Of a DNA stretch of 64,000 bases, positions 7,032 to 54,557 are shown one piece after another (positions within the stretch are counted from its first letter, which is position 1; each line of letters opens with the position of its first letter). This stretch comes from Turneriella sp. (GTDB lineage Bacteria; Spirochaetota; Leptospiria; Turneriellales; Turneriellaceae): assembly GCA_965279515.1 (NCBI GenBank), contig CBDIID010000003.1, positions 1,504,001-1,568,000 of the forward strand, written 5' to 3'. The notes beneath the pieces were generated by a model that worked only from the letters and a program-made list of their open reading frames with translations, was not told the origin of the DNA and did no database searches. The translations under genes and the position numbers were made by a program.

Positions 7032-7092
7032 TCTCCATGATGCACGAGGCATCGTGGAGACGGCGCGCACGGATGCGCTTCATACCGTCTCC
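7032..7092 (+). repeat. GGA-loop nested hairpin element at pyrE 3' end
   Basis: GGAGACGG-C-GCGCACGGATGCGC-TTCATA-CCGTCTCC overlapping TCTCCATGATGC-ACGAG-GCATCGTGGAGA. Confidence 0.65.
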
Positions 7093-7655
7093 TTAAATTC
7101 ACTAGCCTTAAAGACCGGCAACAGATCGACGCCGTGTTCGGCAAGGGCCGCAGCCCCGCCCTCTTCGCGGTCGAGAATACAATACGCCTGGCGTACGATA
7201 AAGCCGGCCTCTTTCATCGCGGCAAATGCCTTGAGCGTTGAGCCGGCGGTGGTGATAACGTCGTCGACAAGAACACAGGGTGTATTTGGGTCAATCCCCT
7301 TCAGCATCTCAATTCGTTTGCCCGTGCCGTGGTCCTTCGCTTCTTTGCGCACAATCGCCGGAATCAGGCGTGCGGGACTTACAACAGTGAGACAGGCGGC
7401 GTAAATGATGGGGTCTGCGCCCATTGTCAAGCCCGCCGTCACGACTTCACCAAAATACTGCTGCGCAATTTTACCAGCGATGACCCGGCCTGCGAGCGCG
7501 AGAAACTCGGGCTGCAACAAGGTCTGTTTGAGGTCGAAATAATAAGGGCTTTTTTTGCCCGAGGCCAGTGTAAAAGGCTCTTCGTGGTTCTCGCGGTATG
7601 AAAATTTTCGGATCGCTTCTTTAAGAGCGGCCTTATCGGCTTCGAGGCTCTGCAT
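7080..7655 (-). CDS. pyrE: Orotate phosphoribosyltransferase
   Basis: FTLASGKKSPYYFD, GLTMGADP, VRKEAKDHG, LVDDVITTAGS. Confidence 0.95.
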   Translation of the reverse strand: MQSLEADKAALKEAIRKFSYRENHEEPFTLASGKKSPYYFDLKQTLLQPEFLALAGRVIAGKIAQQYFGEVVTAGLTMGADPIIYAACLTVVSPARLIPAIVRKEAKDHGTGKRIEMLKGIDPNTPCVLVDDVITTAGSTLKAFAAMKEAGFIVRQAYCILDREEGGAAALAEHGVDLLPVFKASEFKETV

Positions 7656-7691
7656 ACGGCAAGGCTGAATCTTGTGACGCGGCGAAAACCC

Positions 7692-8456
7692 TTAGATATA
7701 TCCGCTGAGTTTATAAGCCATGAGCCCCACCACTTCGCGCATCGCCGTGGCAAAATCACCGATGCCCTGCGCCGAGGGGAAAAAGGATTCCGGGAAAGTG
7801 CTGTGGTCCGCGGCCTTAAAATCCACCGGAAACGGAATCACCTCAAGGCCGACCTTTTTGAAACAGCGCACCGAGCGCGGCATATGGAAGGCCGAGGTCA
7901 CGAGCACGACGTCCTTAAATTTTTTCTCCTGGATGATCTTGAGCGACTCGACCGCGTTCTCCCGCGTGTTGCGCGAATTGCGCTCGGCGAGGATTTTCTC
8001 CTTCGGAAAACCCAGTCCCACTAGATAGTCTTTTAGCACATCACCCTCGCGCAGGCCGCCCTGCAGCATGAGCCCTGACCCACCGCTGATGAGTATATAG
8101 TCGGCGCGGCGCTTCAGCACCAGCTCGAGCGCGGCGGTCAGGCGATCGACGGCGTCGTGGAATTCGGGCCGCCCGCCGCGCAAGGTATTGGCATCGATCA
8201 TACCCCCCAGCACCACGACGACATCCGCCTTATTCATTTTTTCGGTCACGGGCACATCATAGCGGTTCTCGAGCGGCCGCATGAGTAGGCCAGAACCGAA
8301 AGACGTCGAGCAAAACCAGGCGATGGCCCAGACCAGAAGACAGATCTTGCGCGTGCGCCCGGTCAGGCGGCGCAGAAAGACGAAAAGCAGAAACAGGAAG
8401 AAGAGCGTGACCGGCAGAAATAGTGCGGCAAAAACCTTCGAGAGAAAGAAGAACAT
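7692..8456 (-). CDS. YdcF/DUF218 (ElyC-like) protein
   Basis: VVVLGG, ISGG, SRNTRENA, LVTSAFHMPRS; start uncertain (8456 or 8468). Confidence 0.88.
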   Translation of the reverse strand: MFFFLSKVFAALFLPVTLFFLFLLFVFLRRLTGRTRKICLLVWAIAWFCSTSFGSGLLMRPLENRYDVPVTEKMNKADVVVVLGGMIDANTLRGGRPEFHDAVDRLTAALELVLKRRADYILISGGSGLMLQGGLREGDVLKDYLVGLGFPKEKILAERNSRNTRENAVESLKIIQEKKFKDVVLVTSAFHMPRSVRCFKKVGLEVIPFPVDFKAADHSTFPESFFPSAQGIGDFATAMREVVGLMAYKLSGYI

Positions 8457-8545
8457 GTTTTCTGACATAAAAAGATACGGGACCAGTAAATCTTTTTTCA
8501 GGTCAGTTGTTCTTGCTGCGCCCATGGGTTTCCCGCCCATGACGC

Positions 8546-8938
8546 ATGAAAAGATTAATTATATTCTCGCTCTTCTGTGTCCTGCCGGTTTTTACCGCTC
8601 CCAAAACTGAATTATTCCGTGGGAAAATTCTTTCGGTCGAAGACGACTATTGCAGCAAATCGGCAGATTATGTTCTGCAGGCAGCACTCGCTTCAGAAAA
8701 ACAGGGCACTTTAATGCTGGCCTTGGCGCCCAAATGGTATCTGCATACGCGCAAGATTGAGATCCGCATAGGCGCCGACGCCGAAGTGCGGGCATTCAGG
8801 CACAGCGACGGCGTCTACCATGTCATCAACATCAAGCTGGGCAACAAGGTCTATGTTCTACGTGATAAGGAAGGCCAGCCCGTTTGGAAAGCGGAACCGG
8901 GCAGTGAAGATTTATCCAAAACGATCTGTAAGAACTGA
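8546..8938 (+). CDS. Secreted hypothetical protein
   Basis: Signal-peptide-like N-terminus; LAPKWY...LRDKEGQPVW OB-fold-like pattern. Confidence 0.6.
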   Translation: MKRLIIFSLFCVLPVFTAPKTELFRGKILSVEDDYCSKSADYVLQAALASEKQGTLMLALAPKWYLHTRKIEIRIGADAEVRAFRHSDGVYHVINIKLGNKVYVLRDKEGQPVWKAEPGSEDLSKTICKN

Positions 8939-8998
8939 AGTCGCATCGCGGTTTTCATTGACCGCCTGTATAAAAATCAGGATTTTTCTCAGGTTAAA

Positions 8999-9072
8999 GC
9001 GGCTGTAGCTCATTTGGATAGAGTATTTGGCTTCGAACCAAAGGGTAGCAAGTTCGAATCTTGCCAGCCGCA
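8999..9072 (+). tRNA. tRNA-Arg (anticodon UCG)
   Basis: Cloverleaf: GCGGCTG/CAGCCGC acceptor, TTTGG-CTTCGAA-CCAAA anticodon arm, GCAAG-TTCGAAT-CTTGC T arm. Confidence 0.95.
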
Positions 9073-9092
9073 AAAAAAAAATCGGCTACCGA

Positions 9093-9314
9093 GCGGCTGT
9101 AGCACCGAAACGGAGATCGCAAAGCGATCACATTTGGATAGAGCATTTGGCTTCGAACCAAAGGGTAGCAAGTTCGAATCTAATGCGCACGGAGGCGCTA
9201 TAGCTGGCGCCTGGCAGGAGGCCATCTTTGGCGCCAGCTTGCCAGCCGCACACGAGGTGCGTAGGCACGCTGCTGACATGGATGTCATCTACGCAGCGAG
9301 CCAGCCGCACACGA
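9093..9314 (+). pseudogene. Second tRNA-Arg(UCG) copy interrupted by hairpin insertions
   Basis: tRNA blocks at 9093-9103, 9131-9181 and 9238-9250 separated by hairpin-rich inserts; 15-nt direct repeat at 9241-9255 and 9300-9314. Confidence 0.85.
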
Positions 9315-9385
9315 TGACATAATTTTGCCAATCGGCGGCAAAAAATATATCTTATCGAAATTAAGACTTAGTATAAGGAGTTCAA

Positions 9386-9976
9386 ATGATCAAAATTGGA
9401 AACAAAGCCCCCGACTTCAAAGCCACAGCGCTCGTCGGCAAAGATTTTAAGGATGTCTCGCTCGCAGACTATAAAGGCAAGTACGTCGTACTGTTCTTTT
9501 ACCCGCTCGACTTCACGTTCGTCTGCCCTACCGAAATTATCGCATTCTCGGACAAGGCCGCCGAATTCGAAAAACTCGGTGCGCAGGTCATCGGTTGCAG
9601 CGTCGACAGCAAGTTCAGCCACCTGGCATGGACAGAGATTCCCCGCGACAAAGGCGGCATCGGTGACATCAAGTACCCGATTCTCGCAGACATCACGAAA
9701 GATATCGCACGCAGCTATAACGTGCTGATCGAAGAAGCGGGCATTGCGCTGCGCGGTGTGTTCATCATCGACGGCAAAGGCGTGCTGAAATCGGCGACTG
9801 TGAACAACAACAACGTCGGCCGTAACATCGAAGAAGTGCTGCGTACGGTTCAGGCAGACCAGTTTGCCGAATCGCACCCCGGCGAAGTCTGCCCCGCCAA
9901 CTGGACACCCGGCAAAGATTCGATGAAAGCCGATACCAAAGGCTCAAAAGAGTATTTCGCGAAAGCAGGCAAGTAA
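9386..9976 (+). CDS. ahpC: 2-Cys peroxiredoxin
   Basis: [14 protein letters not shown] and GEVCPANW. Confidence 0.95.
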
Positions 9977-10010
9977 GCCAAGGGCCACCTTCGGCTAAAA
10001 CTTTCAAATG

Positions 10011-10038
10011 ATCGCGCCTATGGCGCGATTTTTTTTTT
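10011..10038 (+). terminator. Intrinsic terminator after ahpC
   Basis: ATCGCGCC-TAT-GGCGCGAT followed by a T run. Confidence 0.85.
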
Positions 10039-10051
10039 AGGCTTATAAAAT

Positions 10052-11323
10052 ATGTTCACTTACGTACAAGATGCATTGGAATGGCGCGGCAAAGATCTCG
10101 GCCCCGTCATCAGTGGGGCCGCCGATAAACTCGCGCGCGACTACCAGTACACCGGCCCCTTCTGGCTCTACCAGGAAAAGATTCTCAGCGAACGGCTGGC
10201 CCTGCTCGAAAAACAGCTACCGGGCTGCGGTTTTTATTATTCTGTCAAATCACAGTCGAACCTCGGCATTTTGACTCGAATCGCCGAACACAAGAGTTTT
10301 GGCGCCGACGTCGTTTCGGGCGGCGAACTCTACCGTGCGCTCAAGGCCGGTTTCCTGCCCGGTAAAATCGTCTTTGCCGGCGTCGGCAAAACCGAAGCCG
10401 AAATCGCCGCGGCGCTCGACCTCAAGATCCGCAGCCTGCATGTGGAGAGCATCTCTGAACTCAAAGACATAGCACGCCTCGCGGCGGAAAAAGGCCTTGT
10501 CGGTGCGGTAACGCTGCGCCTCAACCCCGACGTCGAAGTCGATACGCACCGCCATATTACCACCGGCAAAGAAGAAAATAAGTTTGGTCTGAGCGAAAGT
10601 GACTTCCAGGAATCACTAAAAATGATCAAGGGCTCAAAAAGCCTGAAACTCGTGGGCTTACAGGCACACATCGGCTCGCAGATTTTCGACGCGGCACCGT
10701 ACATCGAAACCGCGACTTTCCTTTCGGAAAAATACGGCGTTGTTAAGGCGGCGCTCGACTATCCGCTCGAATACATTTCGCTGGGTGGCGGTTTTGGCGT
10801 GAAATACGAAGATCTCGAAGGCGACGCAGTCAACTTTGACTTCGCGGGCCTGGTCGATGCGATTCGGAAAATATTCGGCGGGAAAATTGAGATCCATTTT
10901 GAACCCGGTCGTTTTATTTCTGCGCCGCTGGGCATCCTTGCCACGCGTGTGCGCCATCTGAAAGAACGGAGCGACAAAACCATCGCAATCATTGACGCGG
11001 CGATGAACGACCTCATTCGCCCGATGCTCTACGAGGCCTACCACCCCATTCTGCCGGTGAGCCGCCGCGCAGGACAGCACACCTACGACGTTGTCGGGCC
11101 CGTCTGCGAATCGACGGATACATTTGCCACCAAGCGCCGCCTGCCGACGCTCGAAGAAAAAGACTGGCTCGTGATCGGTTATGCCGGCGCCTATGGCTCG
11201 TGCATGAGCTCGAACTTCAACACCCGGCCACTAATTCCGGAGCTCTTGCTGGCTGAGAACGGCGAATTGCAGATGCTGCGCAGGCCCCAGACGCTCGAGC
11301 AAATGCTGGTAAACGAGTTATAA
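10052..11323 (+). CDS. lysA: Diaminopimelate decarboxylase
   Basis: YSVK, DVVSGGEL, FAGVGKT, ITTGKEENKFG, HIGSQ, EPGR, IRPMLY, GPVCESTD. Confidence 0.95.
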   Translation: MFTYVQDALEWRGKDLGPVISGAADKLARDYQYTGPFWLYQEKILSERLALLEKQLPGCGFYYSVKSQSNLGILTRIAEHKSFGADVVSGGELYRALKAGFLPGKIVFAGVGKTEAEIAAALDLKIRSLHVESISELKDIARLAAEKGLVGAVTLRLNPDVEVDTHRHITTGKEENKFGLSESDFQESLKMIKGSKSLKLVGLQAHIGSQIFDAAPYIETATFLSEKYGVVKAALDYPLEYISLGGGFGVKYEDLEGDAVNFDFAGLVDAIRKIFGGKIEIHFEPGRFISAPLGILATRVRHLKERSDKTIAIIDAAMNDLIRPMLYEAYHPILPVSRRAGQHTYDVVGPVCESTDTFATKRRLPTLEEKDWLVIGYAGAYGSCMSSNFNTRPLIPELLLAENGELQMLRRPQTLEQMLVNEL

Positions 11324-11389
11324 ACAAATCCTGTCCCCAGCGTCGTCCGGAAAAAATTGACAAGCAAATATCTGTTGAGATTCTTACCG

Positions 11390-12046
11390 ATGCGATACTT
11401 ATTTTTTATACTCACGCTGGCCACAGGCCTCGTTGCTTCGGATCTCTCCGGAACTGATCTCAAATTATCTTTGATACATACCGGGCCTAAGTCCGGCATC
11501 ATCGGCGAACGGTCGTACGAGATAACTTTCGACGAACAGCAATACCACATGAGGCTTCTGGGACCAGGCGGCCCTTCGTGCAGTGCCCCCTACCAGATTG
11601 AAGGAAAAAAAATTAAGCTGGAAGGCAGTACCGATTTCTGTAAAAAGCAGGTCTGTACAATCGTTTCTAATCTGACTTCTGTTGAAGGCAGCCAGGGGCT
11701 GCAATGTGGCAAAACCATTTTTTACACCGAAGCCGACCGGCCGGAAAAAGGCGCAGCCGTAAAAGTAAACGGTGTCCCGGCTGTAGCGATGGGCTATGTG
11801 GCCGGCTCAACCACGACAAAGGTGGTGATCCGCAGCGGGCCTTCAAAATCCAGCAAACCTGTTGTTTGTAATGGCAAGGTGCCGGACACTTTGAATTTAA
11901 TGGTCCTCGCCCGCACGGCAGACAAAATGAAAGTCGATAGTTGGAACAACTATTGGTATTACGTTTTTATTCACGGTGACGAAAACAGTTTTGATTGCGG
12001 CATTAAACCGCAATGGATCTTCGGCGAATTTGTCAAGGTGCAATAG
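11390..12046 (+). CDS. Secreted Cys-rich protein with C-terminal SH3-like domain
   Basis: Signal peptide; IRSGPS...VLART...NYWYYV...WIFGEFV. Confidence 0.65.
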   Translation: MRYLFFILTLATGLVASDLSGTDLKLSLIHTGPKSGIIGERSYEITFDEQQYHMRLLGPGGPSCSAPYQIEGKKIKLEGSTDFCKKQVCTIVSNLTSVEGSQGLQCGKTIFYTEADRPEKGAAVKVNGVPAVAMGYVAGSTTTKVVIRSGPSKSSKPVVCNGKVPDTLNLMVLARTADKMKVDSWNNYWYYVFIHGDENSFDCGIKPQWIFGEFVKVQ

Positions 12047-12506
12047 CCGCGATCACGTAGTGGTATTTTGCCTGCGCGGCACGCTTGCCGTCGGGCAAAA
12101 AGAAATCACAGACAAAAAATAGATTCTTACCCTCGCGGCGCTTCAGCACGGCCTTTGCCCTCAGGGTCTCACGGTTTACGGCTCTTAAGTAGCGAATGGA
12201 AGCGTTTACCGTCACCATGCGTTCGTTTGCTTTCTCGATAAAAAACAGGCACATCATGGCCGTAATCGTATCGCCCACGGTAAAATAAGCGCCACCATGC
12301 AGTAAGCCGTGCAGCGCGCGGTTCGACATGGCAAAGGGAATCGAGGCCTCTGAAAGCTCGCCGCTCAGCGTCTCGAGCTTCATCTTTGTTGTGCCTGGGT
12401 GGCACTGCTCGATCAGGTGTTGTACCTGACTGACAAAATCGCCGTCGCGGCGGATATCAAACAGGTCTTTCGGAATGATGTCGAAAATCAGGTCTGCATT
12501 GTGCAT
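12033..12506 (-). CDS. PaaI family thioesterase
   Basis: HGLLHGG...GD and TVNASIRYLR. Confidence 0.85.
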   Translation of the reverse strand: MHNADLIFDIIPKDLFDIRRDGDFVSQVQHLIEQCHPGTTKMKLETLSGELSEASIPFAMSNRALHGLLHGGAYFTVGDTITAMMCLFFIEKANERMVTVNASIRYLRAVNRETLRAKAVLKRREGKNLFFVCDFFLPDGKRAAQAKYHYVIAAIAP

Positions 12507-12560
12507 ATACACAATATATAATAAACGGGGTTTTCCGGCCGAAAAATGGGGTCCTTAGGT

Positions 12561-13816: not shown

Positions 13817-13817
13817 T

Positions 13818-15644: not shown

Positions 15645-17072
15645 ATGGTTGTTAAACTTCAAAACACCTTAAGTAGATTAAAGGAGCCCGTCGAGGGCTC
15701 TTCCCTCAAAATCTACTCCTGTGGACCAACAGTCTATAACTACGCCCACATCGGCAACTTCCGCAGTTATGTCTTTGCAGACGTTTTGAACCGATGCCTC
15801 CGCTTAGCGGGCTACCAGGTGCAACATGCCATGAATCTCACCGATGTCGATGACAAGACCATCAACGGCGCGATCGAACTCACCAAAAAGGAACCCGGCA
15901 AGTACCCGGACCTCAAAGCGGCGCTGGGCGCATACACGCAGCCATATACAGAGGCATTTTTCGCCGACCTGAAAACTCTCAACATCATTCCTTTTGACCT
16001 GCACCCGCGCGCGACCGATTATATTCCCGCCATGCTCGATCTGGTTGAACGCCTCATCAAGGCCGGTATCGCCTATGAACAGGATGGTTCGGTCTATTAC
16101 CGCATCTCAGAGAAAAAAGATTATGGCAAACTCTCGCGCCTCGATCTCGAGAAGAACAAGACCGGCACGCGTTATAATACCGACGAATACGATAAAGACG
16201 ACGTGCGCGATTTTGTACTCTGGAAGGCAGAAGGTAAAGACGGCGTGCACTGGCATTCTGATCACGGCGACGGCCGCCCCGGCTGGCACCTCGAATGCTC
16301 GGCGATGATCCACGAGATTTTTAAGGGGCCGATCGACATCCACACAGGCGGCGTAGACCTTATCTTTCCTCACCACGAAAACGAAATCGCCCAGAGCGAA
16401 GCGGCCTATGGCGGTACTTTCGTCAAACACTGGGTGCATTGCGAACATTTGCTCGTCGACAACCGCAAGATGTCTAAGTCCGCGGGTAATTTTTATACCC
16501 TGCGCGACCTGATAGGCCAGGGCAAGAAACCCGAAGTCATCCGCTACTTTCTGCTCTCCGCGCATTACAGCCAGAAAATTAATTTTACCGCCGAAGTTTT
16601 TGAAATGGCCGAGGCCTCAGTCGAAAAATTTTACTCGCTCATCAACCGTCTGGGTCGTATTCAGCAAAATAAGGCGGATGGCTCTGCATCGCTAAAAACT
16701 TCTTCCGAAGCTGCGCGGCAAAACTTTCTCAGCGAACTTGCGGACGACCTCAATACGCCGCGCGCCCTTGCAGTCGTGCACGAATATATGCGCGAGGCCA
16801 ATGCCTTCCTCGACAGCAGTGGCGAAAGCGTCTCTGCATCTGACCATGCCGTCATTCTCGAAACCCTCCGCCACTTTGACAAACTGCTGGGCCTCATCGA
16901 TCTGATGCCGAAGGCAGGTGCACCTGCCGAACTGCAGGCGCTGCTCGACGAGCGCAACAAGGCGCGCGCAGCAAAAGATTTCAAACGCTCCGACGAGCTG
17001 CGTGACCAGATTCTCAAAGCGGGTTACAAAATTCTCGACACCAAAAGCGGATCTCACCTGGAGAAGGTATGA
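15645..17072 (+). CDS. cysS: Cysteine--tRNA ligase
   Basis: YSCGPTVYNYAHIGN, DFVLWK, GRPGWHLECSAM, FPHHENE, KMSKS; true start ATG 15645 (the track ORF runs through the tRNA). Confidence 0.97.
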   Translation: MVVKLQNTLSRLKEPVEGSSLKIYSCGPTVYNYAHIGNFRSYVFADVLNRCLRLAGYQVQHAMNLTDVDDKTINGAIELTKKEPGKYPDLKAALGAYTQPYTEAFFADLKTLNIIPFDLHPRATDYIPAMLDLVERLIKAGIAYEQDGSVYYRISEKKDYGKLSRLDLEKNKTGTRYNTDEYDKDDVRDFVLWKAEGKDGVHWHSDHGDGRPGWHLECSAMIHEIFKGPIDIHTGGVDLIFPHHENEIAQSEAAYGGTFVKHWVHCEHLLVDNRKMSKSAGNFYTLRDLIGQGKKPEVIRYFLLSAHYSQKINFTAEVFEMAEASVEKFYSLINRLGRIQQNKADGSASLKTSSEAARQNFLSELADDLNTPRALAVVHEYMREANAFLDSSGESVSASDHAVILETLRHFDKLLGLIDLMPKAGAPAELQALLDERNKARAAKDFKRSDELRDQILKAGYKILDTKSGSHLEKV

Positions 17073-17860
17073 TTGTCTTCGGCTTCCATGCCGTCAGCGA
17101 TCTGGTAGAAAAATCCGGTTTTCTCGAGGGCGATAAGCTGATCGTTGCGCGTCAGGCCAATGACGGCCACCGCAAAGACGCTACCGGCAGCGGTGGCCAA
17201 AGCGCATCCATGCGCCAAGGCCGTCTGCAGCGAATTCTCGCCAAAGCGGCGAAGGCGCGCGTGCAGGTAATCCAGAAAAATTATGGTGATCTGAATACCA
17301 TAGCCGGCACCAAAAACCACCAGGGTATCGTGCTCGAACGCAGCGCTGAACTCGGGATCAAAAGTTTTACCAAACAGGATTTTGTCGCTGCCACAGGCGG
17401 CATCTACCTAGGTCTCGACGGCGTGCAGGATCCACAGAATTTGGGCGCCATCTGTCGCTCGGCCCTCGCACTGGGAGTGAAAGGTATTTTTCTGCCGCAG
17501 AAGGACAGTGCGCCCGCCGGCGGTACGGCGCTTAAGGCTTCGGCGGGGGCGCTCCTCGAAATGCCGCTATGTTTTACCGGCAGCATTGCATCGCTGATGC
17601 AATTTATCGACGATAAGAATCCTGAAATTCCGATGCTTGCGCTCGACCAGTCGGGCGATCCCTTTACCGAAGACGACACAAAACTCGCCCAAGGGGAGCT
17701 CCCCCTGCTTCTGGTGGTCGGTTCGGAACAGGGAATCAGCCGCCTTGCGCTCGAACGTGCAACAGGCAAACGCCGGTTACGCATCAGCGACAAAGTGGAA
17801 AGTTATAACGTATCGGTGGCAGTTGCCCTCGCGCTCTACGAACTCACGCGCGGCCCATAA
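17069..17860 (+). CDS. TrmH/SpoU family RNA methyltransferase (RlmB-like)
   Basis: GFHAV, NHQGI, LDGVQDPQNLGAICRSA, KASAGA, VGSEQG, ESYNVSVA; follows cysS. Confidence 0.9.
   Translation: MIVFGFHAVSDLVEKSGFLEGDKLIVARQANDGHRKDATGSGGQSASMRQGRLQRILAKAAKARVQVIQKNYGDLNTIAGTKNHQGIVLERSAELGIKSFTKQDFVAATGGIYLGLDGVQDPQNLGAICRSALALGVKGIFLPQKDSAPAGGTALKASAGALLEMPLCFTGSIASLMQFIDDKNPEIPMLALDQSGDPFTEDDTKLAQGELPLLLVVGSEQGISRLALERATGKRRLRISDKVESYNVSVAVALALYELTRGP
17162..17225 (-). repeat. In-frame GGA-loop hairpin element in the methyltransferase
   Basis: Minus strand: GACGGCC-TTG-GCGCATGGATGCGC-TTT-GGCCACCGC...GCGGT-GGCCGTC. Confidence 0.65.
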
Positions 17861-30560: not shown

Positions 30561-30608
30561 GATTTCGAGACAGTGCGCAAAGTGATTCGGCGCGATGCGA
30601 CGATTCGC

Positions 30609-30701
30609 TGCGAAAGCCGGATGCTTTCGCATTTCGCGGAGCGAAACCCGGCGCGAATAGCTTGCCGTAGCCCGGATTGCGAAGGCAAGCGTAAGTTCGC
30701 G
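30609..30701 (+). repeat. Cluster of GGA-loop hairpins upstream of smpB
   Basis: TGCGAAAGC-CGGAT-GCTTTCGCA; TTTCGC-GGA-GCGAAA; CGCGAA..GCTTGCC-(GTAGCCCGGATTGCGAA)-GGCAAGC..TTCGCG. Confidence 0.65.
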
Positions 30702-39525: not shown

Positions 39526-40848
39526 ATGAAAGTCGAAAAACAAGTCGTTATCGCGGCCCCGCTCCGCACTCCCTTTGCCCAAATCGGCAAGGCGCTGGCG
39601 AAATACCCGGCGCACCATCTCGGCAAACTCGTCGCCGAGAAAATGATCGAAAAATTCAAAATCAAAAAAGATGATATCGATGCGGTGATCGTCGGCGAAG
39701 GTTTTGCCAACGCACCCAACTCGGCGCGTGTGATTGCAAACCTTATCGGTCTCAGGGATGAAATTCCCGCGCTCACCGTGGCGAACAACTGCGTCTCAGG
39801 CATGGATGCCATCGCCGAAGCAACGCGGCGCATTGTACTGGGTGAAGCATCGGTCGTGCTGGTGCTCGGCGAAGAATCGCAGACGTCGATGCCGATGATC
39901 ATCAAGGGTGCGCGCCTCGACAAAAAAACCGCGACGCTCGACAAACTGAAGGGCCTGCTGCCCGATAAGCTGCCCGATGGCGTGGAACTCAGAGACACGC
40001 TCGAAGACGGTTTGGGCGACGGCGAAAATTCCTATGGCATGCAGGCGACTGCCGAGATTCTCTCGCAGAACTACAACCTCTCGCGCGCCATCAACGACAA
40101 AGTCGCCTTCCAGAGTTTTAAGCGCGCTTACGACGCTTCGGAAAAGGGTCTGTACAAAGACTACATTATTCCGATGAAAGATGAAGACGGTGAGGTGCTC
40201 GACCGCGACGAAGCGGTTGTGCTGCGCAAAGGCCTCGTCGAAAATCCTGAACGCATGGGCCGCGCGATGCTGCTCTTTGATAATCCCCAGTTCAAGTTCG
40301 ACCAGTTCAAGGAAAAATACGGCAAAGACCTGAAAGAGATCCATGGCCCCACCGTTTCGATCTTCAACGCCAGCCCGCGCTCTGACGGTGCAGCCGGCGT
40401 CATTGTCACAACGCCCGAAAAGGCGAAGCAGTTGGGATTAACCCCGGTGATGAAAATCAGCGGTTTTAAAATGAAAGGTGTTCACCCTAACCTTATGGGT
40501 TTGGGTCAGGCCGAGGCAACGCTGGCCCTCCTCACCGAGCTCGGCATGAAGATCGAAGACATGGACTATGTCGAGATCCACGAAGCCTTCGCCGCTACCG
40601 CCATCGGTGCGCTCGAAGAAATCAAAAAACGCTCGGGCGGCTGGGACTGGGAGAAGCAGTTCGACGCGATGAAGATTAACCCGAATGGCGGCTCGATCGC
40701 AACCGGTCACCCCTTCGGCGCAACAGGTGTGCGCCTGGCGCTCAACGCCGCGATGGATTTTGCGAACGACCCCAACGCAAAAAAGATCCTCACCACCGCC
40801 TGTGCGCATGGCGGCGTCGCAGGTGCCATCGTCTTCGAGCGCGCATGA
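39526..40848 (+). CDS. Thiolase (acetyl-CoA C-acyltransferase)
   Basis: NNCVSGM, NASPRSDGAA, EIHEAFA, NPNGGSIATGHPFGATG, CAHGG. Confidence 0.93.
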   Translation: MKVEKQVVIAAPLRTPFAQIGKALAKYPAHHLGKLVAEKMIEKFKIKKDDIDAVIVGEGFANAPNSARVIANLIGLRDEIPALTVANNCVSGMDAIAEATRRIVLGEASVVLVLGEESQTSMPMIIKGARLDKKTATLDKLKGLLPDKLPDGVELRDTLEDGLGDGENSYGMQATAEILSQNYNLSRAINDKVAFQSFKRAYDASEKGLYKDYIIPMKDEDGEVLDRDEAVVLRKGLVENPERMGRAMLLFDNPQFKFDQFKEKYGKDLKEIHGPTVSIFNASPRSDGAAGVIVTTPEKAKQLGLTPVMKISGFKMKGVHPNLMGLGQAEATLALLTELGMKIEDMDYVEIHEAFAATAIGALEEIKKRSGGWDWEKQFDAMKINPNGGSIATGHPFGATGVRLALNAAMDFANDPNAKKILTTACAHGGVAGAIVFERA

Positions 40849-41432
40849 GTATATCGCGCCTGGGGGAACGTACCACAGGGCTTGGAGCCCGAAGGTCCGG
40901 AACGGACAGGATGTCCTCTGCGTTACGGACGGAAGGTTTAGATTGGCTGAATGCCGGCGCGGTCTGCTTCAACTTCAACCTGAGGCGGACCGCGCGCGCC
41001 GTAACGCAGTACTACGACGAGGTCTTAAAACCTTCGGGCATTAAGGTCACACAGTTCACCATCCTCATGGCGATTGCGACGCAAAGCAGCCGGCGCACTG
41101 CCATCCATGGCAGCGCCGGCCTCGAGCCCTCCGTGGCTCAGAGCACGATCACAGAGATCGCCCGCCTCGCGCAGGTCGACCGCACGACGCTCACGCGCAG
41201 CCTCAAGATATTGCAGGGCGATAAGCTGATCGAAGTCAGGAAGGCACAACCCGGAAACAAACGCCGGGTCAATATCACCCCGCTCGGCATCCAAAGAATG
41301 AAAGAGGTTTATCCCTATTGGTTTAAGGCCCAGCGTTCGCTGGCCAAGGCGCTGAGCCCCGTCAAGACCCGCGAACTGCGCCACCTGTTGGGCGATGTCA
41401 AAAATGCTGCGGAGAAACTGCATGCCGTCTGA
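40845..41432 (+). CDS. MarR family regulator with two hairpin-derived peptide inserts
   Basis: CFNFNLRRTARAVTQYYD..L...GIKVTQF; DRTTLTRSL. Confidence 0.85.
   Translation: MSISRLGERTTGLGARRSGTDRMSSALRTEGLDWLNAGAVCFNFNLRRTARAVTQYYDEVLKPSGIKVTQFTILMAIATQSSRRTAIHGSAGLEPSVAQSTITEIARLAQVDRTTLTRSLKILQGDKLIEVRKAQPGNKRRVNITPLGIQRMKEVYPYWFKAQRSLAKALSPVKTRELRHLLGDVKNAAEKLHAV
40895..40930 (+). repeat. GGA-loop nested hairpin element
   Basis: GTCCG-G-AACG-GACAGGATGTC-CTCTG-CGTT-A-CGGAC. Confidence 0.6.
41089..41143 (-). repeat. In-frame GGA-loop double hairpin element
   Basis: Minus strand: CTC-T-GAGCCACGGAGGGCTC-GAG-GCCGGCGC-TGCCATGGATGGCA-GT-GCGCCGGC. Confidence 0.7.
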
Positions 41433-47910: not shown

Positions 47911-49434
47911 GTGCTTTCTATATTAGCTGGTATACTCCTTTTGGGCGTCTGTGTGTTTTTTCACGAGCTCGGTCACTTTGTGGTCGGCAAGCTGATGGGC
48001 GTAAAGCCGCGTGTGTTCTCGATCGGTTACGGCCGCGCGCTCTTTTTCCGCCGCCGCAAAAGCACAATTTACCAGATTACCGCAATTCCCCTCGGCGGTT
48101 ATGTGCAGTTCTATGGTGACGATCCCTCAAACCAGAAACGCAAGATGCGCAAGGGAGATTTCTTCTCGGTGGGCCCATGGCGCCGTATGGCATTGGCGTT
48201 CGGTGGCCCGATGTTCTCGGTGCTGCTCGGCTTCCTGGTCGTCTTCATTCTGCTGCAAACCGGCTACCGGCCGATGGACAATGTTGTGCGGGTCGACCCC
48301 AAGGGCGCGCTCTATAAGGCGGGCCTGCGCGACGGCGACCGCGTGACTTCTGTCGAAGGCAATGGCACGCCGTCCTTTGACCGTATCATCTATGAAGTGG
48401 GTTTTGCGCGCGGCGAAACTGTCGAGGCAACGATCGAACGCGCCGGCCAGCCCGTAAACCTAAACCTGCCTGTGCAGCGCTCCGAACCGGGCACCCCCGG
48501 CCTGTTAACGGGTGCCCGCCCACTCTCACGCCTGACCATGACCGAAGCCGGTCCCAAAGGTGTAGATTTAAGACCCGGCGACGAGATTCTGAAGGCCAAT
48601 GGCCAGACGCTCTATTCAATCGAAGATCTCATCCGTGTGCTGAACGCCCAGGACGCCGACACGGCTGAGTTAGATATTAACCGCCCCGACGGCAAGGGGG
48701 GATTCACCCCTGTGCACCAGACTGTGCCGCTGAAAAAAGTGCCACGCATTGTACTGAAGAATATTACCGACATTCAGACTGAAAAGGCCGTGCCTGAAAT
48801 CATTCTCGAAGACGGCGCCGGCAAAGATTTCCAGAATATCTTTGTCAATGGCGAGAGTTTCAGCACCTTTAAAGAATTCCATGCGGCCCTTGAAGCAGCA
48901 GATTTATCGGCGCTAAAACTGCGTATCGGCCCCGTCGAAGTCAAAGGCGATGTCGTGCTGACACACCGCAGCCAGATTGGCATCCGCCCTGCGGAAAAAC
49001 ACCTGAGCAGCCTGACCCAGCTTTCATTCTTGCGGCAAATTGTGCTCAGCGCTGACGAGACGATATTTATCACCAAGTCGACATTCGTCGGCCTGTGGCG
49101 CATCGTTCAGGGAAAACTTTCTTTCAACAAGAGTGTTTCAGGCCCCGTGAAAATGGTGGCGATCGCGGCAAAAACTGTCGAACTCGGCTGGCAGACATAC
49201 TTTCTGCTGATGGCGCAGATTACCATTATTCTCGGAGTGATGAACCTTTTACCGATTCCTGTTCTTGACGGCGGCCATATTCTTTTCTACTTTATTGAAG
49301 CGATCTATAAGCCGCTTTCATTCAAGGTGCAGGCCACGGCGACGCGTATCGGTATGGCCGTCATGCTCGCGATGGGTATCTACGTCATCGGTCTCGATAT
49401 TCTCGACGTCTTCGTGAAACGCGTGTTCGGCTAA
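47911..49434 (+). CDS. rseP: Site-2 (M50) metalloprotease with PDZ domains
   Basis: HELGH, IPLGGYV, GP, NLLPIPVLDGG. Confidence 0.92.
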   Translation: MLSILAGILLLGVCVFFHELGHFVVGKLMGVKPRVFSIGYGRALFFRRRKSTIYQITAIPLGGYVQFYGDDPSNQKRKMRKGDFFSVGPWRRMALAFGGPMFSVLLGFLVVFILLQTGYRPMDNVVRVDPKGALYKAGLRDGDRVTSVEGNGTPSFDRIIYEVGFARGETVEATIERAGQPVNLNLPVQRSEPGTPGLLTGARPLSRLTMTEAGPKGVDLRPGDEILKANGQTLYSIEDLIRVLNAQDADTAELDINRPDGKGGFTPVHQTVPLKKVPRIVLKNITDIQTEKAVPEIILEDGAGKDFQNIFVNGESFSTFKEFHAALEAADLSALKLRIGPVEVKGDVVLTHRSQIGIRPAEKHLSSLTQLSFLRQIVLSADETIFITKSTFVGLWRIVQGKLSFNKSVSGPVKMVAIAAKTVELGWQTYFLLMAQITIILGVMNLLPIPVLDGGHILFYFIEAIYKPLSFKVQATATRIGMAVMLAMGIYVIGLDILDVFVKRVFG

Positions 49435-49435
49435 C

Positions 49436-50740
49436 TCAGGCCTTTCGGCGGATACGATTTCCGGTTGCAACCCCGAGCACAAGCCAGGCGAAAAATAAGG
49501 CGCCATAGAGCGCGACGGAAAGCCAAGGGTTGAGGCCCGTCACGATATAAGGCGTCAGTAACGTGAGCAATCCCCCCGCGATAAAAGGTTGTGTGATGGC
49601 CGAGCTTTCGGCAAAGACACGCGCAGCGGGAGTCTTGAATCTCGGGTCGACCATCTTCAGCAGCATCAGCCCCGTCGCTGCAGTGCCGTTCAGCATACCG
49701 AAGTTGATGAGCCCCAGCTCAAAGCTATACGATACCGGCAACATTTTCGGCCGCACATAGAAGTGGCAAAAAACATTCCAGAGAAAACCCGCGGCGAATA
49801 CAGTCAGCAGCGGAATCAGGCTGTGCCCCAAGAGGCGAACGTCGATGATCGCAATGCCGGCAAAAATCAGAATCTCCAGGAAGACATCCGCCAATAGCAT
49901 CATGATACTGTTATCGATGAGCGCATCGGCACCGGTAAAATGGCAGAGCATGCGTACTGAATAGCCGCCCACCAGGGTGTAGGCAAAAAGCGGCAGACTG
50001 AAATTCCTGATCTTATCGGCTGCGACGAGGCGCGGCAGAATTTCATGTTCGACCGCACCTTTCAGGAAAAAGCCAAACCAGTATGCCGCGGCGATGAGCA
50101 GAAAACTGATCAAGAGCGAAGTGAGATCGATTGAGGCCCGGTTATCTTCGATGGGCGCCGATGATGTACCGGCGGCGACATTGCGGCGGTGCCGGTGATG
50201 AATGAGCCAGACCCCGCCGGCGATGCCGCAGATCAGCCCGACTGTGGCGCTGAAGAGGCCGTATTCGAGCCCGGCAGGAATGCCGTTCTGCACCAGTACC
50301 GGCCCCATCGCCACGGCTGTACCGTGACCACCGGCAAAACCGGTCTCCAGCACCGAGGTGAACGCCATCGGTTCGTTGAAATAAGGTTTAAAGATAAGGA
50401 TGGTTCCAATAAGTCCGATCAGGACCTGCCCCATCACCGATACCCAAACGAGCGAAGTCTGCGCGAGAATGTGCGTGAACGAGCGGCGCTCTTTATGCGA
50501 GGCGTCGTTGCGCTGCAGAAAAAGGCAGGCGAAGACAAGGGCGATGAACTCTGTGGGTAACGATTTTAAATGCAGAAAAAAGCCGCCGGTTTTTTCGGCT
50601 GGCAGCAATGTGAAATAAATCAGCACGACCAGGCCGATTGTCAGCGATGGCGGAATGCGGAAGCGGTCGAGAAACGTAATTTTTCTTCCGATGAGGGCGC
50701 TCACGCCCAAAAGTAAAAGAACAAGGAGAAAATATTGCAT
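49436..50740 (-). CDS. Sodium/glutamate symporter (GltS family)
   Basis: GFAGGHGTA, ATVGL, G..ATGLMLLKMVDP. Confidence 0.85.
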   Translation of the reverse strand: MQYFLLVLLLLGVSALIGRKITFLDRFRIPPSLTIGLVVLIYFTLLPAEKTGGFFLHLKSLPTEFIALVFACLFLQRNDASHKERRSFTHILAQTSLVWVSVMGQVLIGLIGTILIFKPYFNEPMAFTSVLETGFAGGHGTAVAMGPVLVQNGIPAGLEYGLFSATVGLICGIAGGVWLIHHRHRRNVAAGTSSAPIEDNRASIDLTSLLISFLLIAAAYWFGFFLKGAVEHEILPRLVAADKIRNFSLPLFAYTLVGGYSVRMLCHFTGADALIDNSIMMLLADVFLEILIFAGIAIIDVRLLGHSLIPLLTVFAAGFLWNVFCHFYVRPKMLPVSYSFELGLINFGMLNGTAATGLMLLKMVDPRFKTPAARVFAESSAITQPFIAGGLLTLLTPYIVTGLNPWLSVALYGALFFAWLVLGVATGNRIRRKA

Positions 50741-50785
50741 GTTTAACCCGGCGGAGTCTTGTGAGCCCCGTCGGAGCGTAAACCC

Positions 50786-53662
50786 CTAATCCGTATCTTT
50801 TTTCAGCCAACGCTTGAGGTATTTACCCGTCAGCGAGTTTTTATGCTTCGCAATCTCTTCGGGCGTCCCCGATGCCAACACCTCGCCGCCCTTGACGCCG
50901 CCCTCAGGGCCCATGTCGATGATGTAGTCGGCGCATTTGATGACATCCATGTTGTGTTCGATCACAACCACGGTATTGCCTTCGTCGACGAAACGCTCGA
51001 GAATATTCATCAGCAGGCGGATATCCTCAAAGTGCAGCCCCGTCGTGGGTTCGTCGAGAATGTAGAGCGTTTTCCCGGTAGAGCGACGGGAGAGCTCCGT
51101 GGCGAGTTTGACGCGCTGCGCTTCGCCGCCCGAGAGCGTGGTGGCAGCCTGCCCGAGCTTGATGTAACCTAAACCGACATCGAAAAGCGCCTTGAGCTTC
51201 GCGTGGATCGCCGGCACCGCCTGGAAAAAATCGACCGCCTCTTCGACGGCCATGTCGAGCACTTCGTAGATGTTCTTGTTCTTAAAACGCACTTCGAGCG
51301 TTTCCTGGTTATAGCGTTTTCCCTGGCAGACTTCGCAGCGTACATAGACGTCGCTTAGAAAGTGCATCTCGATGCGTTTGACGCCGTCCCCATCGCAGGC
51401 TTCGCAGCGGCCGCCCTCGACGTTGAATGAAAAACGACCGGCTTTATAGCCGCGCATCTGGCTCGCCGGCAGCGCGGCAAAAACATCGCGGATCGGCCCG
51501 AAGGCGCCGGTATAGGTCGCAGCATTCGAACGCGGTGTGCGGCCAATAGGGCTTTGGTCGATGTTGATAATCTTATCGATGTTCTCTGTGCCGGTGATGG
51601 CCTTGTGTTTGCCCGGCAGATCTTGCGCTCCCATGAGCTTCTTATTGATACCTTTATAAAGGATTTCATTGACCAGGGAGCTTTTTCCGCTGCCGGATAA
51701 ACCCGTGACTACCGTGAGTACCGAAAGCGGAAAATCGACGTCGATGTTCTTGAGATTGTTTTCCTGCGCGCCGGTGACGCGAATCTTCAACTCGCCGGGT
51801 TTGCGGCGCGTCTCAGGAATCTCAATCCGCTTTTTACCTGTGAGGTAGTCAGCGGTGAGTGAATTTTTTGCCTTGGTCAGTTGCGCATACGTACCCGCAA
51901 ACACGACATTGCCACCGTGGCGCCCGGCGCCCGGGCCCATATCGACGATGTAGTCGGCCTCTTGCATTGTCTCTTCGTCGTGTTCCACGACGACGATGGT
52001 ATTACCGAGATCGCGCAAACCCTTGAGTGTCGAGATGAGTTTTGCGTTATCGGACTGGTGCAGGCCAATCGAAGGTTCGTCGAGTACGTAAAGCACTCCC
52101 ATGAGCGCAGAACCGATCTGCGTCGCGAGGCGAATGCGTTGCGCTTCGCCTCCGGAAAGGGACCCCGCAATTCTATCCAACGTCAGATAACCGACGCCGA
52201 CAGAGTTCAGAAAGCGCAGGCGGTCGAAAATTTCTTTCATCGCCTGTTTGGCAATCTCTGTCTCCGTCTTATTGAAGTTCATCTTCTGGAAATAATCCAG
52301 CGCGGTTTCGAGCGTCAGTGCCGTCGTCTCGGCAATGTTCTTGCCTTTGAGTTTGACCGCGAGCGCGACAGGCTTCAGCCGCTTACCCTTGCAGACGGGG
52401 CATGGCATCTGCTCCATGTATTGTTCCATCTTCTGGCGCATGCCTTCAGACTGCGTCTGCATATAACGGCGGTGCAGGTTGGGAATGATACCCTCATAAC
52501 CGCGCGAGAACTGGTAGGTGCTGTCTGAGCCCTTCCATTCATAGTCGAGCTTGAGGGATTTATCGCCATAAAGCAGGAGATCCATCGTCTTCTTCGGCAG
52601 TTTTCGCCACGGCGTATTCGGGTCGAATGATACCTTCTTGCGCAGGGCATCGATCGAGGCCTTGTACCAGTAGCCATCGCCCGAAAAGCCAAGGCCATCC
52701 CCCAAACCCTCGCGTACGGTCTGTTTGTCGTCGCGGATCAGGCGGTCGGGATGAAACTCGAGCATATGCCCGAGGCCACTGCAGCTTTCGCAGGCGCCGT
52801 CGGGAGAATTAAACGAGAACAAGCGGTGTGTGATTTCGGGAAAACTCAGGTCACAGGCGGAGCAATAGAGCTTTGCGGAAAAGCTTTCTTCGCTCTGTTT
52901 ACCATCCTCGCCTTCGAAGAGTATGCTCGCCTGCCCGCCGCCTGCAGCCTGTTTGAGCGCGAGCTCCAGCGAGCCGGCAAGATGCATGCGCTGCGACTGC
53001 AGGTTTTCTTTTTCGAGCACCAGGCGGTCGACGACGATGTCGATGTCGTGTTTCTGGTTTTTCTTGAGTTCGATCTCTTCGTCTAAACTTCGAATCTGCC
53101 CGTTCACGCGCACGCGCACGAAACCGTCTTTCTGGATACGCTCGAATTCATGCTTGAACTCGCCCTTTTTGCTGCGGGCAATGGGAGAGAGAATCTGCGT
53201 GCGGAATGATTTCGCCTTGGGCATGCGGTCGAAAATGCCGAAGACATGGGCAACCATGGTGTCGATCGACTGCGCCTCAAGCCGGGCGCCGCATTCGGGG
53301 CAATGCGGTTCGCCGAGGCGGGCGAACAAGAGGCGCAGATAATCATAAATTTCGGTGACGGTACCGACAGTCGAACGGGGATTACGCGCCGTGGTTTTTT
53401 GCTCAATCGAGATCGCAGGGCTTAAACCCTCGATCGAATCAACGTCGGGCTTTTCGAGCTGGCCTAAGAACTGCCGCGCATAGGCAGAGAGCGATTCGAC
53501 ATAACGCCGCTGGCCTTCGGCATAGATGGTATCGAAAGCCAGCGAGCTTTTGCCGCTGCCGGATAGCCCCGTGATGACGACGAGTTTCTCGCGCGGTATT
53601 TCGAGCGAGATATTCTTGAGGTTATGCTCGCGCGCGCCCGTAATTTTTATCGAAGGGGGCAC
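50786..53662 (-). CDS. uvrA: Excinuclease ABC subunit A
   Basis: GAREHNLKN, two GLSGSGKS Walker A motifs, LSGGEAQR x2, Zn fingers. Confidence 0.98.
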
Positions 53663-53663
53663 G

Positions 53664-54557
53664 TTAAGAGGGGAACTCCACGTATTTGCCGATGTATTGC
53701 AGAAATTTTTCCGAAGCGCGCTGCGGCCGTGCGCGTGACAACGATACGATCAGCTGCTCGTCGCGCATCGAGATCAACAGCTTGCCGTTGTGCATGACAT
53801 CTTGCCGAAACCAGTAGCGGATTTTATCGATGCGTTCGATCCATGTCATCACCTGTAGTGTATGTCCTGCTCTCGCATGGATGCCATCCATGCCAGGTCG
53901 AGCCTCGGCACCTCCTGTGCCATCGGCAGGACCTTCGGCAAAAAAATTCGCGACACTGCCCATAAAAAACGACGTCGTATCGAGCTCGACAATCTTTTCA
54001 TAGGTGAGGCCGATCTGTTCGACGAACATCCAGCGGCCTTCTTCAAAGATCTTCCATAGCGAGGCGACGTTGTATTTACCCGCGAAATCACGGTCGGCAT
54101 AAGGCAGCTTGTATTGCCCGACGATGCGCTCACCCTTGCCCGACCAGGGTTTTAGCGGCTCATACAAGACGGGCTCTTTGCCTTCGGCTGCAGGCAGTTC
54201 CACAACGAGAAAATCAGAACCGCGCACCGGATATGTGAGCTGCTGCAGGTGGCAGACCAGTTCACCGCCCTTCTCAAAAATTTTCTGGTCCCAGTGGATA
54301 TTGCCGCCGCTTTCAGGAAAAGCGTGGGTCTCTATCCTGAGTTCTGCGCCGGGAAACTGCTGGCGGTGGAATTTGACATAACCCGAAAGCGGGTTGAGGT
54401 AAATTTGTTCGTTTTTGACCTGCTCAAAGGGGATACCCAGTTTTTCGAGCAGCCGGTAACGGCCTTCGAGTGCAAACGATTCATATGTCCTGCTCGTCAC
54501 ATGCCGCTGCGTGTCGAGGTCGGCAAAACGTGTCGTGGCGAAATATTCGTCGCGCAT
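53664..54557 (-). CDS. Tandem hot-dog (4HBT-like) thioesterase
   Basis: [11 protein letters not shown]...EGR and second repeat YADRD...FEEGRW. Confidence 0.78.
53872..53939 (-). repeat. In-frame GGA-loop hairpin element in the thioesterase
   Basis: Minus strand: GCCGAAGGTC..GGCACAGGAGGTGCC..GACCT-GGCATGGATGGCATCCATGC. Confidence 0.7.

Follow-up and report, generated by a model that had tools for sequence, protein, structure and literature searches.

The Turneriella sp. genome carries a family of twin-hairpin units that is real and far beyond chance. The unit is a mobile insertion at dispersed sites, where it forms tandem runs, and within genes it survives where its length is divisible by three. 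Its stem sequence turns over while the fold and the loops persist. We give about an even chance to the reading that it is a non-autonomous mobile micro-element and the bare, stand-alone core of the TwoAYGGAY family, which would be copied as a folded single strand by an enzyme of the HUH/Y1 kind and would be tied to CsrA. Seven units lie in the window, i.e., the whole stretch of 64,000 nt that was analyzed:

7035..7092, plus strand: unit 1, between two minus-strand genes; loop 1 CACGAGG, loop 2 CACGGATG; CC at both ends
8999..9072, plus strand: intact tRNA-Arg(TCG)
9093..9250, plus strand: disrupted tandem copy of the tRNA-Arg, with unit 2 behind its T arm
9180..9239, plus strand: unit 2, a 58-nt insertion in the tRNA-Arg copy, judged from the intact tRNA and the tRNAs of relatives G012 and G016
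9242..9302, plus strand: unit 3, at the tRNA 3' end, within a 15-nt direct repeat
17165..17220, minus strand: unit 4, in-frame and antisense in a SpoU-family methylase gene (17069-17860, plus strand; Pfam); loop 2 decayed
30609..30631, plus strand: non-member hairpin, a lone 9-bp stem with a CGGAT loop, upstream of smpB
40873..40931, plus strand: unit 5, in-frame and sense, near the start of a MarR-family gene (40845-41432, plus strand); loop 1 decayed
41088..41143, minus strand: unit 6, in-frame and antisense in the same MarR-family gene as unit 5
53868..53926, minus strand: unit 7, in-frame and sense in a thioesterase-like gene (53664-54557, minus strand; Pfam 4HBT_2)

In this genome the dispersed unit measures 54-60 nt, typically about 57 nt, and has two hairpins in series, in the order CC-N3-hairpin 1-N3-GG-outer stem-hairpin 2-TCYKT bulge-outer stem-CC. 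Hairpin 2 caps the outer stem, and the bulge (mostly TCTTT, TCTGT or TCTTC) lies on the 3' side of that stem. Both loops read CA(N)GGAKG, where N is any base, and are spaced by 24-27 nt; a CACGA variant is common, with 12 cases of CACGA without GGA in the tally of loop 1. The ends are a CC or CT dinucleotide directly repeated at both sides, which makes a terminal repeat of 2-3 nt; some copies have a long repeat there in its place (15 nt at unit 3). Whether the 5' position is C or T covaries with whether the internal one is G or A (counts 41, 5; 5, 9; p = 1.7e-4); in the register used, the 3' dinucleotide does not match the internal purine or the 5' dinucleotide significantly. At unit 2, which has CT at both ends, the internal AG could pair with either CT. 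Tandem runs have a period of 56-60 nt, and the predicted stability of the fold is nearly equal on either strand. The initial annotation had described a single nested hairpin recurring at related loci: all ten motifs that it quoted are present at the places and on the strands it gave, and the relatedness of the loci stands, regrouped as seven units, but the architecture is one of two serial hairpins. It had also counted a looser variant at 30616, which we removed from the family, being a lone hairpin (fold z = -0.27) that lacks a CA-led loop and a partner and shows no clean indel in 4/4 relatives aligned. Separately, the disrupted tRNA-Arg copy holds an A3-loop double hairpin at about 9104-9130 that is unrelated to the units.

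Descriptor searches, on which our unit counts are based, found about 70 loci in the genome with 75 paired-hairpin units (23-29 nt apart), against 0 and 0 in the controls. Of the 71 loci listed, one is a flagellin leader (C3:3984916) and a few are doubtful. With Watson-Crick stems of at least 6 pairs, C-A-N-GGA-N-G loops occur 78 times in the genome, whereas two order-5 Markov genomes average 1.0; at stems of at least 5 pairs the figures are 120 and 3.5. Control loops (GAA, GCA, GTA and G-closed) on stems of at least 5 pairs show an excess of at most about twofold. The shuffle check that had been proposed with the first description gave a clear result: 32 units lie within the 4157 genes called by a simple purpose-made model, and 0 in each of 4 synonymous-codon shuffles. 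The unit is present in 13/13 relatives of the genus, and its subfamilies are common to unrelated loci and to different classes of spirochaetes.

The claim that stems vary while the loop is kept is borne out by covariation, although the copies at 17202 and 40905 have one decayed loop each. Among 44 loci chosen independently of the outer stem, 271 of 352 outer-stem positions are paired (shuffles, 150 +/- 9, maximum 184), and these loci hold 43 distinct outer-stem arms. Orthologous units, five of ten pairs being comparable, reveal 10 base pairs changed on both sides and 4 broken, with the loops kept. A search blind to the loop returned 25 modules, compared with 2 and 1 in controls, and 23 of the 25 have the canonical loop 2. 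Behind the intact tRNA of G012 and G016 lies a unit whose outer stem differs in sequence yet is paired.

Direct evidence for insertion comes from orthologous sites. When 60 loci of relatives were compared with this genome, 20 had a shorter orthologue (19 empty and one with fewer copies) and one a filled one; a joint orthologue was lacking for the remaining 39. Each of the 20 differs in length by a multiple of 3, the break lying in most about 8 nt before loop 1, and most unit sites are lineage-specific. In the window, each of the seven units is matched by an empty allele in one comparison or more. About 54 nt are missing for unit 1 in the sole orthologue aligned (L108, from relative G016), and 59 nt are absent at unit 3 in a contig from run X5. 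Unit 4 is missing in 12/12 orthologous loci aligned, two of them from one genome, with a net 48-60 nt where projection held. Relative to G009, unit 5 is a clean 57-nt gap (L025/L012, one genome) and unit 6 a 51-nt gap; the latter is also absent in G017, and G012 has at this site another insert, which is shorter and has a CAGGAGG loop. Unit 7 corresponds to a 57-nt gap in 8/8 relatives aligned. Thus the proposal of a structure-defined mobile micro-element that adds peptide stretches is upheld by clean in-frame indels, and the four in-frame copies, in both orientations, are divided among the genes for the SpoU methylase (one), the MarR-family protein (two) and the thioesterase (one).

Copying of the unit as a whole is suggested by non-orthologous copies, in which 3' module identity reaches 93% and the 5' module is then 0.72 identical, against a background of 0.34 (three pairs). 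This linkage largely refutes a mechanism without a dedicated enzyme, in which hairpin-driven template switching and local duplication would build units from loop-like host sequence. Such a mechanism would fit the tandem runs of 56-60 nt, the few empty sites that are already loop-like (L069, L076) and a modest excess identity of the 5' segment with the right flank. Yet the 5' segment agrees with the empty sites over no more than about 3 nt, and the fixed two-hairpin geometry, the fixed bulge and the subfamilies shared at unrelated loci and across spirochaete classes make a local origin impossible to sustain; we consider this mechanism very improbable. We also discarded the idea that stems are copied from target flanks used as guides, as the excess identity is weak and not general.

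Which known system does the unit belong to? TwoAYGGAY (RF01731) is described as a multi-copy motif for which CsrA binding has been proposed and a mobile-like expansion suggested (PMC2864571; PMC4333381; bioRxiv 10.64898/2026.09.22.753630); as presented in the preprint, mobility is suspected and left undecided, and matches inside genes are set aside. Our units, too, have AYGGAY-type loops on two hairpins in series and an outer stem, interrupted by an internal loop, that carries the second hairpin, and they share loop variants such as CACGAGG and CAGGATG with the seed rows examined (PMC2864571). They differ in lacking the common basal stem, since they end at the outer stem of hairpin 2, in loop spacing (24-27 nt, compared with about 30 in the seed rows examined) and in occurring in Spirochaetota, unlike TwoAYGGAY as described. 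The best genome match to RF01731 reached 24.4 bits for a cut-off of 43 (one site, model positions 48-110), and none was found in the window.

Other families resemble the unit in part. As with REP/BIME elements, the hairpins are small, dispersed and bulged, occur in tandem arrays, are sometimes in-frame, at times supply stop codons and end at a pyrimidine dinucleotide, as those elements are described (PMC3733652, PMC3479197), but the unit stems are not conserved in sequence, and the GTAG/CGTC of REP/RAYT is absent from the hairpin foot (only unit 3 reads GTAG beside a stem). Relative to MITEs, the unit has no terminal inverted repeats of 15-30 bp, its ends being direct CC/CT and its stems internal; it does have a short target-site duplication (2-3 nt repeat) and empty sites (19, plus the window cases). 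Rickettsia palindromic elements insert in RNA genes. The units, like these elements as described (PMC3733652), lie in-frame in working protein genes in both orientations and at RNA genes, but are defined by loops and fold instead of a conserved sequence, a comparison made by description and Rfam scan. They resemble CsrB/CsrC/RsmXYZ and CsrA-bound flagellin leaders, as reported (PMC7652899, PMC8668096), in their paired ANGGA loops at bridging distance; unlike Csr/Rsm sponge RNAs, they have no single transcription unit, two loops per unit, frequent antisense placement and no Rfam match.

Integron cassettes with their attC sites are mobile DNA conserved in structure and variable in sequence. The units share this property, but are dispersed and have no AAC...GTT (R''/R') core boxes in a single long hairpin; such boxes are present in separate array sites of about 208 nt. 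The same hairpin pair nevertheless brackets a class of integron-like cassettes, set in from either end by about 30-45 nt and in every case on one fixed strand (four genomes), with the gene between the two hairpins, and these cassettes do have the TwoAYGGAY basal-stem topology. The recombinase beside the arrays in relatives falls below the IntI cut-off (its homologue in Turneriella sp. scores 161 of 265 bits), and no canonical IntI passed the cut-off in Turneriella sp. and five relatives. The first description had overlooked both the TwoAYGGAY core identity and this framing of cassettes. Our literature search found no paper on the unit or on the cassette link; most subscription journals lay outside its scope, and preprint supplements may cover spirochaete or coding variants. 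The bracketing of cassettes by hairpins, and the co-occurrence with CsrA in Pseudomonadota genomes, are new here.

The sequence, spacing and co-occurrence of the units fit putative CsrA sites. As first proposed, the loops match the CsrA consensus, here that from SELEX, and with a spacing of 26 nt the two sites are about 18 nt apart, close to the optimum reported for CsrA bridging (both from the description in PMC7652899). A flagellin leader of Turneriella sp. has two such hairpins 26 nt apart, and csrA adjoins fliW. At least 10 twin-loop matches were found in 26 of 162 CsrA-positive and 0 of 139 CsrA-negative genomes among 301 Pseudomonadota, a co-occurrence confounded by kinship and by Csr sRNAs that match the twin-loop pattern. 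Within the family it is uninformative, as CsrA is present in 20/20 genomes, some of them without the unit. A tie to CsrA is the likeliest explanation both for the retention of the loops and for the restriction of the family to CsrA-bearing genomes: in a sense transcript, the two loops could act as a two-site clamp for the CsrA dimer.

How the unit moves can be approached through its ends. TnpA-REP, as described, cuts single-stranded DNA at CT through the AG of a guide (PMC3479197). The terminal CC/CT is suggestive of HUH-type cleavage of a single strand at the dinucleotide: a trans-acting, structure-reading enzyme of the HUH/Y1 kind would copy the folded strand and cut at a dinucleotide chosen by pairing with the internal GG/AG, in the way that GTAG and CT serve TnpA-REP. 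Searches for the mobilizer gave no supported candidate. A RAYT/TnpA or GIY-YIG gene flanked by copies, which the initial annotation had suggested seeking, was not found among the loci examined: none of the 24 Y1 transposase loci of the genus (one in Turneriella sp., 23 in relatives) is flanked by units, all carrying other palindromes, and neither are the 6 Y1 and 13 GIY-YIG loci of five high-copy Pseudomonadota genomes. IS110 is absent from Turneriella sp. and 10/13 relatives and present in 3/13; we take one copy between an inverted unit pair in G647 for an IS that inserted into a repeat doublet. The other genes enclosed by such pairs are ordinary, with no mobilizer candidate. Among 33 ORFs next to units, in a phage contig and in other spirochaetes, there are one Xer-like ORF and one Mu transposase but no recurring mobility family. 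The small contigs C1 and C2, with chromosomal-type genes and a restriction-modification/MobA plasmid, gave no support for a mobilizer, and a phage scan with a strict pattern gave three stretches and no lead.

Orientation bears on whether DNA or RNA is copied. Spread at the DNA level, which had been deduced from mixed orientation, is likely: intergenic copies split evenly (14 sense, 13 antisense). The picture is not clean, as coding copies lean sense (22 versus 9, p = 0.03, not explained by stop codons), and four of the 71 loci, all in sense, lie immediately behind the T arm of a tRNA, where 0.63 are expected (p about 0.004). IS200/IS605 elements have a GTAG/CGTC tag and a leading/lagging bias; the unit loci show no such strand bias (31 versus 40, p = 0.34). 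The sense lean hints at an RNA step. A bacterial SINE-like route could be envisaged, in which a CsrA dimer clamps and protects the transcript, a reverse transcriptase acting in trans copies it into DNA, and the copy enters sites that are transcribed or structured; the same clamp would join cassette ends during their genesis. It would also account for the excess of G-T over A-C in the outer stem (20 versus 7 at nine positions), the strict one-strand cassette ends and the confinement, in our sample, to CsrA-positive genomes. Against it stand the even split of the 27 intergenic copies and the sole reverse transcriptase examined, which is defence-like and below all cut-offs, and we think this route unlikely, if worth attention.

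A similarly small chance goes, in our judgment, to an old spread followed by domestication, the units now being kept by the host as dispersed sites that titrate CsrA or control mRNAs in a lineage with FliW and without a CsrB-type RNA. Compensatory changes at orthologous sites with loops kept agree with this, but could also stem from repeat replacement or template switching. The geometry is that of the native flagellin leader, Leptospira CsrA is reported to bind GGA hexaloops with csrB/csrC homologues described as absent (PMC8668096), and no Csr-family Rfam match was found in the window. The lineage specificity of most sites, the antisense placement of about 40% of oriented copies relative to their neighbors and the unrelated host genes argue against it. 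We return to the mobile core copied as a folded single strand, of which a bolder version, to our minds rather doubtful, would make CsrA part of the movement: its dimer would clamp both loops of the folded strand as the mobility signal, and the 57-nt element would graft 17-20 residues into a protein or, with a gene between the hairpins, give rise to the cassette class, the clamp holding its ends.

No function has been assigned to TwoAYGGAY, widespread as the motif is, and its minimal form offers direct evidence of insertion: empty orthologues, defined ends and peptide grafts. The short unit is an easily tested substrate and a source of new protein loops outside Rickettsia. Its link to cassettes bears on how these are made, and its confinement to CsrA-bearing genomes in our sample suggests a selfish element tied to the RNA regulator of its host. 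If CsrA does clamp the moving strand, TwoAYGGAY would gain a function, a global RNA regulator would assist transposition as a co-factor, and one way in which cassettes arise would come to light.

The family of dispersed GGA-loop hairpins reported by the initial annotation is confirmed, with corrections. All ten of its motifs were found at their positions, the hairpin at 30616 that it had listed as a looser copy is not a unit, and the window total is seven units. In this 4.9-Mb genome (53% GC), the main contig has 78 C-A-N-GGA-N-G loops closed by stems of six or more Watson-Crick pairs, vs a mean of 1.0 in two Markov controls. The proposed comparison with shuffled sequence also revealed an excess, with 32 units inside genes vs 0 in four synonymous shuffles. 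The hairpins are paired, forming 71 clusters in the genome (0 and 0 in controls) in which the loop starts lie 26 nt (38 cases), 25 nt (23), 27 nt (7) or 24 nt (6) apart.

Each unit reads CC-N3, a 3-bp hairpin 1, N3-GG, an outer stem of 8-10 bp bearing a 3-bp hairpin 2 and a 3' bulge, and CC; its two terminal dinucleotides are separated by 53-59 nt. The bulge measures 5 nt in 40 of the 71 loci when the two most frequent registers are considered, and its sequence is mostly TCTTT, TCTGT or TCTTC. At 44 loci chosen without regard to the outer stem, pairing holds at 271 of its 352 positions (150 ± 9 in shuffles) and 43 distinct arms occur. A loop-blind search returned 25 modules (2 and 1 in controls), 23 of them with the canonical loop 2 and 22 with the canonical loop 1.

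These units insert, have defined ends, are copied as one unit, and conserve their fold and loops. Comparison with orthologues, proposed as a check for clean indels, gave an empty allele for all seven window units (G numbers are genus relatives):

7035..7092, + strand: unit 1, absent in G016
9180..9239, + strand: unit 2, in a disrupted tRNA-Arg copy, absent from the intact tRNA
9242..9302, + strand: unit 3, at the tRNA 3' end, absent from a contig of sequencing run X5
17165..17220, - strand: unit 4, in a SpoU gene, absent at 12 loci
40873..40931, + strand: unit 5, in a MarR gene, absent in G009
41088..41143, - strand: unit 6, in the same MarR gene, absent in G009 and G017
53868..53926, - strand: unit 7, in a thioesterase-like gene, absent in 8 of 8 relatives

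Conversely, 60 unit loci of relatives were compared with this genome, a test that favours coding sites: for 20 the orthologue was shorter (in one case through copy number), one was filled, and the other 39 lacked a joint orthologue. The 20 length differences were 54 nt (eight), 57 nt (four), 60, 51 and 42 nt (two each), 78 nt and 102 nt. Insertion breakpoints concentrate 8 nt ahead of loop 1 and carry a repeat of 2-3 nt, and unit subfamilies recur at unrelated loci. At orthologous filled sites, 56 pairs were unchanged, 10 compensatory and 4 broken, with 5 of 10 site pairs comparable in register.

The closest known family is TwoAYGGAY, an RNA motif of two GGA-loop hairpins. Its seed rows examined (PMC2864571) share the core and loop variants of the unit but are enclosed by a basal stem. 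The unit is a variant rather than a filed member, because it misses both the Rfam score cut-off and the basal-stem criterion. For TwoAYGGAY, a 2026 preprint describes extreme copy-number variation and suspects mobility, leaving it unsettled (10.64898/2026.09.22.753630). REP and RPE elements also insert into genes (PMC3733652), but the unit lacks their tags and partner genes. All 13 genus relatives carry the twin-loop pattern, with 6-27 matches per genome (0 for the reversed-pattern control). Of 401 spirochaete genomes, 16 have a stricter form; none of the 89 genomes from the largest family in the same class has it. In other lineages the core sits within longer folds.

How could such short elements move? 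A double-stranded circle would need a donor longer than 57 nt, and a trans-acting enzyme may read the folded single strand of the unit. The terminal CC/CT and the complementary internal GG/AG recall the guide-directed cutting described for TnpA-REP (PMC3479197). Covariation links the 5' pyrimidine to the internal purine; tests of the 3' dinucleotide against this purine or the 5' dinucleotide were not significant. The suggested search for a RAYT/TnpA or GIY-YIG mobiliser gave no candidate among the loci examined in the genus and in high-copy genomes. Spread at the DNA level, which the initial annotation drew from mixed orientation, fits the intergenic copies between co-directional genes (14 sense vs 13 antisense), but coding copies lean sense (22 vs 9, p=0.03), as do all four of the 71 loci directly behind a tRNA T arm, and this lean hints at a possible RNA route. 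No leading/lagging strand bias of copies was found. Intergenic DNA holds 40 of the 71 loci, against a coding share of 86% for the contig.

Other repeats accompany the units. Short genus-wide Y1 transposase genes (L002:1444-1481 and L133-L155) each lie, in a TIRtron-like arrangement, between long palindromes of their own, which are perfect, have AT-rich centres and form one or more families per genome. In G647, a genome of another lineage, an inverted twin-GGA repeat pair encloses an IS110 transposase (L271:1250-2251), an arrangement which suggests that such repeats are IS110 targets. At C3:3637258 a unit stands right behind a tRNA-5'-end-like stretch, antisense within a called gene and with no tRNA after it. 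A second, unrelated micro-insertion with two AAA-loop hairpins occupies the D arm in the tRNA-Arg copy (window 9104-9130), and a similar copy in G018 (L107) bears a longer form of it; genome-wide, AAA/TTT is the most frequent loop of 3 nt (127). C-rich/G-rich palindromic repeats overlap the SpoU gene start in G009 and G018 (L100, L087), a third repeat family of the genus, and a multi-hairpin patch upstream of smpB (window 30590-30700) differs in every relative aligned.

The longest-stemmed GGA hairpins lie outside the units, within two arrays of ~208-nt attC-like sites (75 and 49 sites):

C3 ~90-171 kb and ~3.734-3.805 Mb (L116-L124): integron-like array pair, without adjacent integrase
C3:2926093-2927193: homologue of the recombinase that adjoins arrays in relatives, here away from the arrays

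At both cassette ends a ~20-bp terminal inverted repeat comes first, with the hairpin ~30-45 nt in from the end. Length, repeat and ORF filters reduced up to 122 intervals to 88 cassettes, and hairpins occur in 28 of the 31 whose longest ORF shares their strand and in 10 of the 57 others. The corresponding counts for relatives, in 161 cassettes from 186 sites, are 21 of 27 and 31 of 134. Partial duplication and relatedness among cassettes make the p-values of these contrasts too strong. Hairpins on the opposite strand were never seen in the 88 or the 161 cassettes. Hairpin placement thus tracks the array strand more closely than it does the gene strand. In G007, G016 and G011 an array end adjoins a tyrosine recombinase directed away from the array; it is divergent, XerA/IntI-like, below the IntI cut-off and, by eye, without the IntI-specific insertion. 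Under the usual integron layout, the hairpin strand would then be the bottom strand, and genes on it inverted. A hairpin-framed cassette would have the TwoAYGGAY topology, a basal stem and two GGA hairpins with cargo between.

The arrays also hold ~ten nearly identical copies of a 194-nt cassette that lacks a long ORF (e.g., C3:3735531, 3735928, 3746366 and 3756207). In several instances an IS carrying an rve integrase core has landed in it, with the IS end lying just within the terminal repeat of the cassette; the IS end motif occurs in 10 copies. Many attC-like sites (e.g., C3:3735330-3735530) have an interior stem with a TCTTT 3' bulge resembling hairpin 2. Elsewhere, a 511-aa defence-type reverse transcriptase, convergent with an OLD-like ATPase/TOPRIM gene (L128:3274-6775, C3 ~1.298-1.302 Mb), has a cassette-end GGA hairpin 36 nt upstream of its start; the locus is below every named-system cut-off. 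Contig C2 (L127) represents a MobA plasmid of 6626 bp that encodes an NgoBV-like restriction-modification pair; the assembly contains it three times over, and each repeat has one GGA hairpin with an 8-bp stem. Contig C1 appears to duplicate part of its own gene set.

Finally, the loops may link the family to CsrA, whose binding was proposed earlier for TwoAYGGAY (PMC4333381). Among 301 Pseudomonadota genomes, at least 10 twin-loop matches occur in 26 of 162 with CsrA vs 0 of 139 without, and more than 35 in 6 with and 0 without, counts confounded by kinship and Csr sRNAs. Of five high-copy Pseudomonadota genomes, three had their matches listed, and in these three the matches are dispersed repeats. 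The genome studied here has a single csrA, adjoining fliW, and each of the two flagellin leaders found contains a pair of ANGGA sites, in one case 26 nt apart. Leptospira CsrA binds hexaloops of the same kind (PMC8668096). The unit loops agree with the CsrA SELEX consensus (PMC7652899) and are predicted sites, and their 26-nt spacing leaves a gap of ~18 nt, near the optimum for dual-site bridging given in the same paper. The initial reading of a selfish micro-element that may add Csr-binding sites is partly supported.
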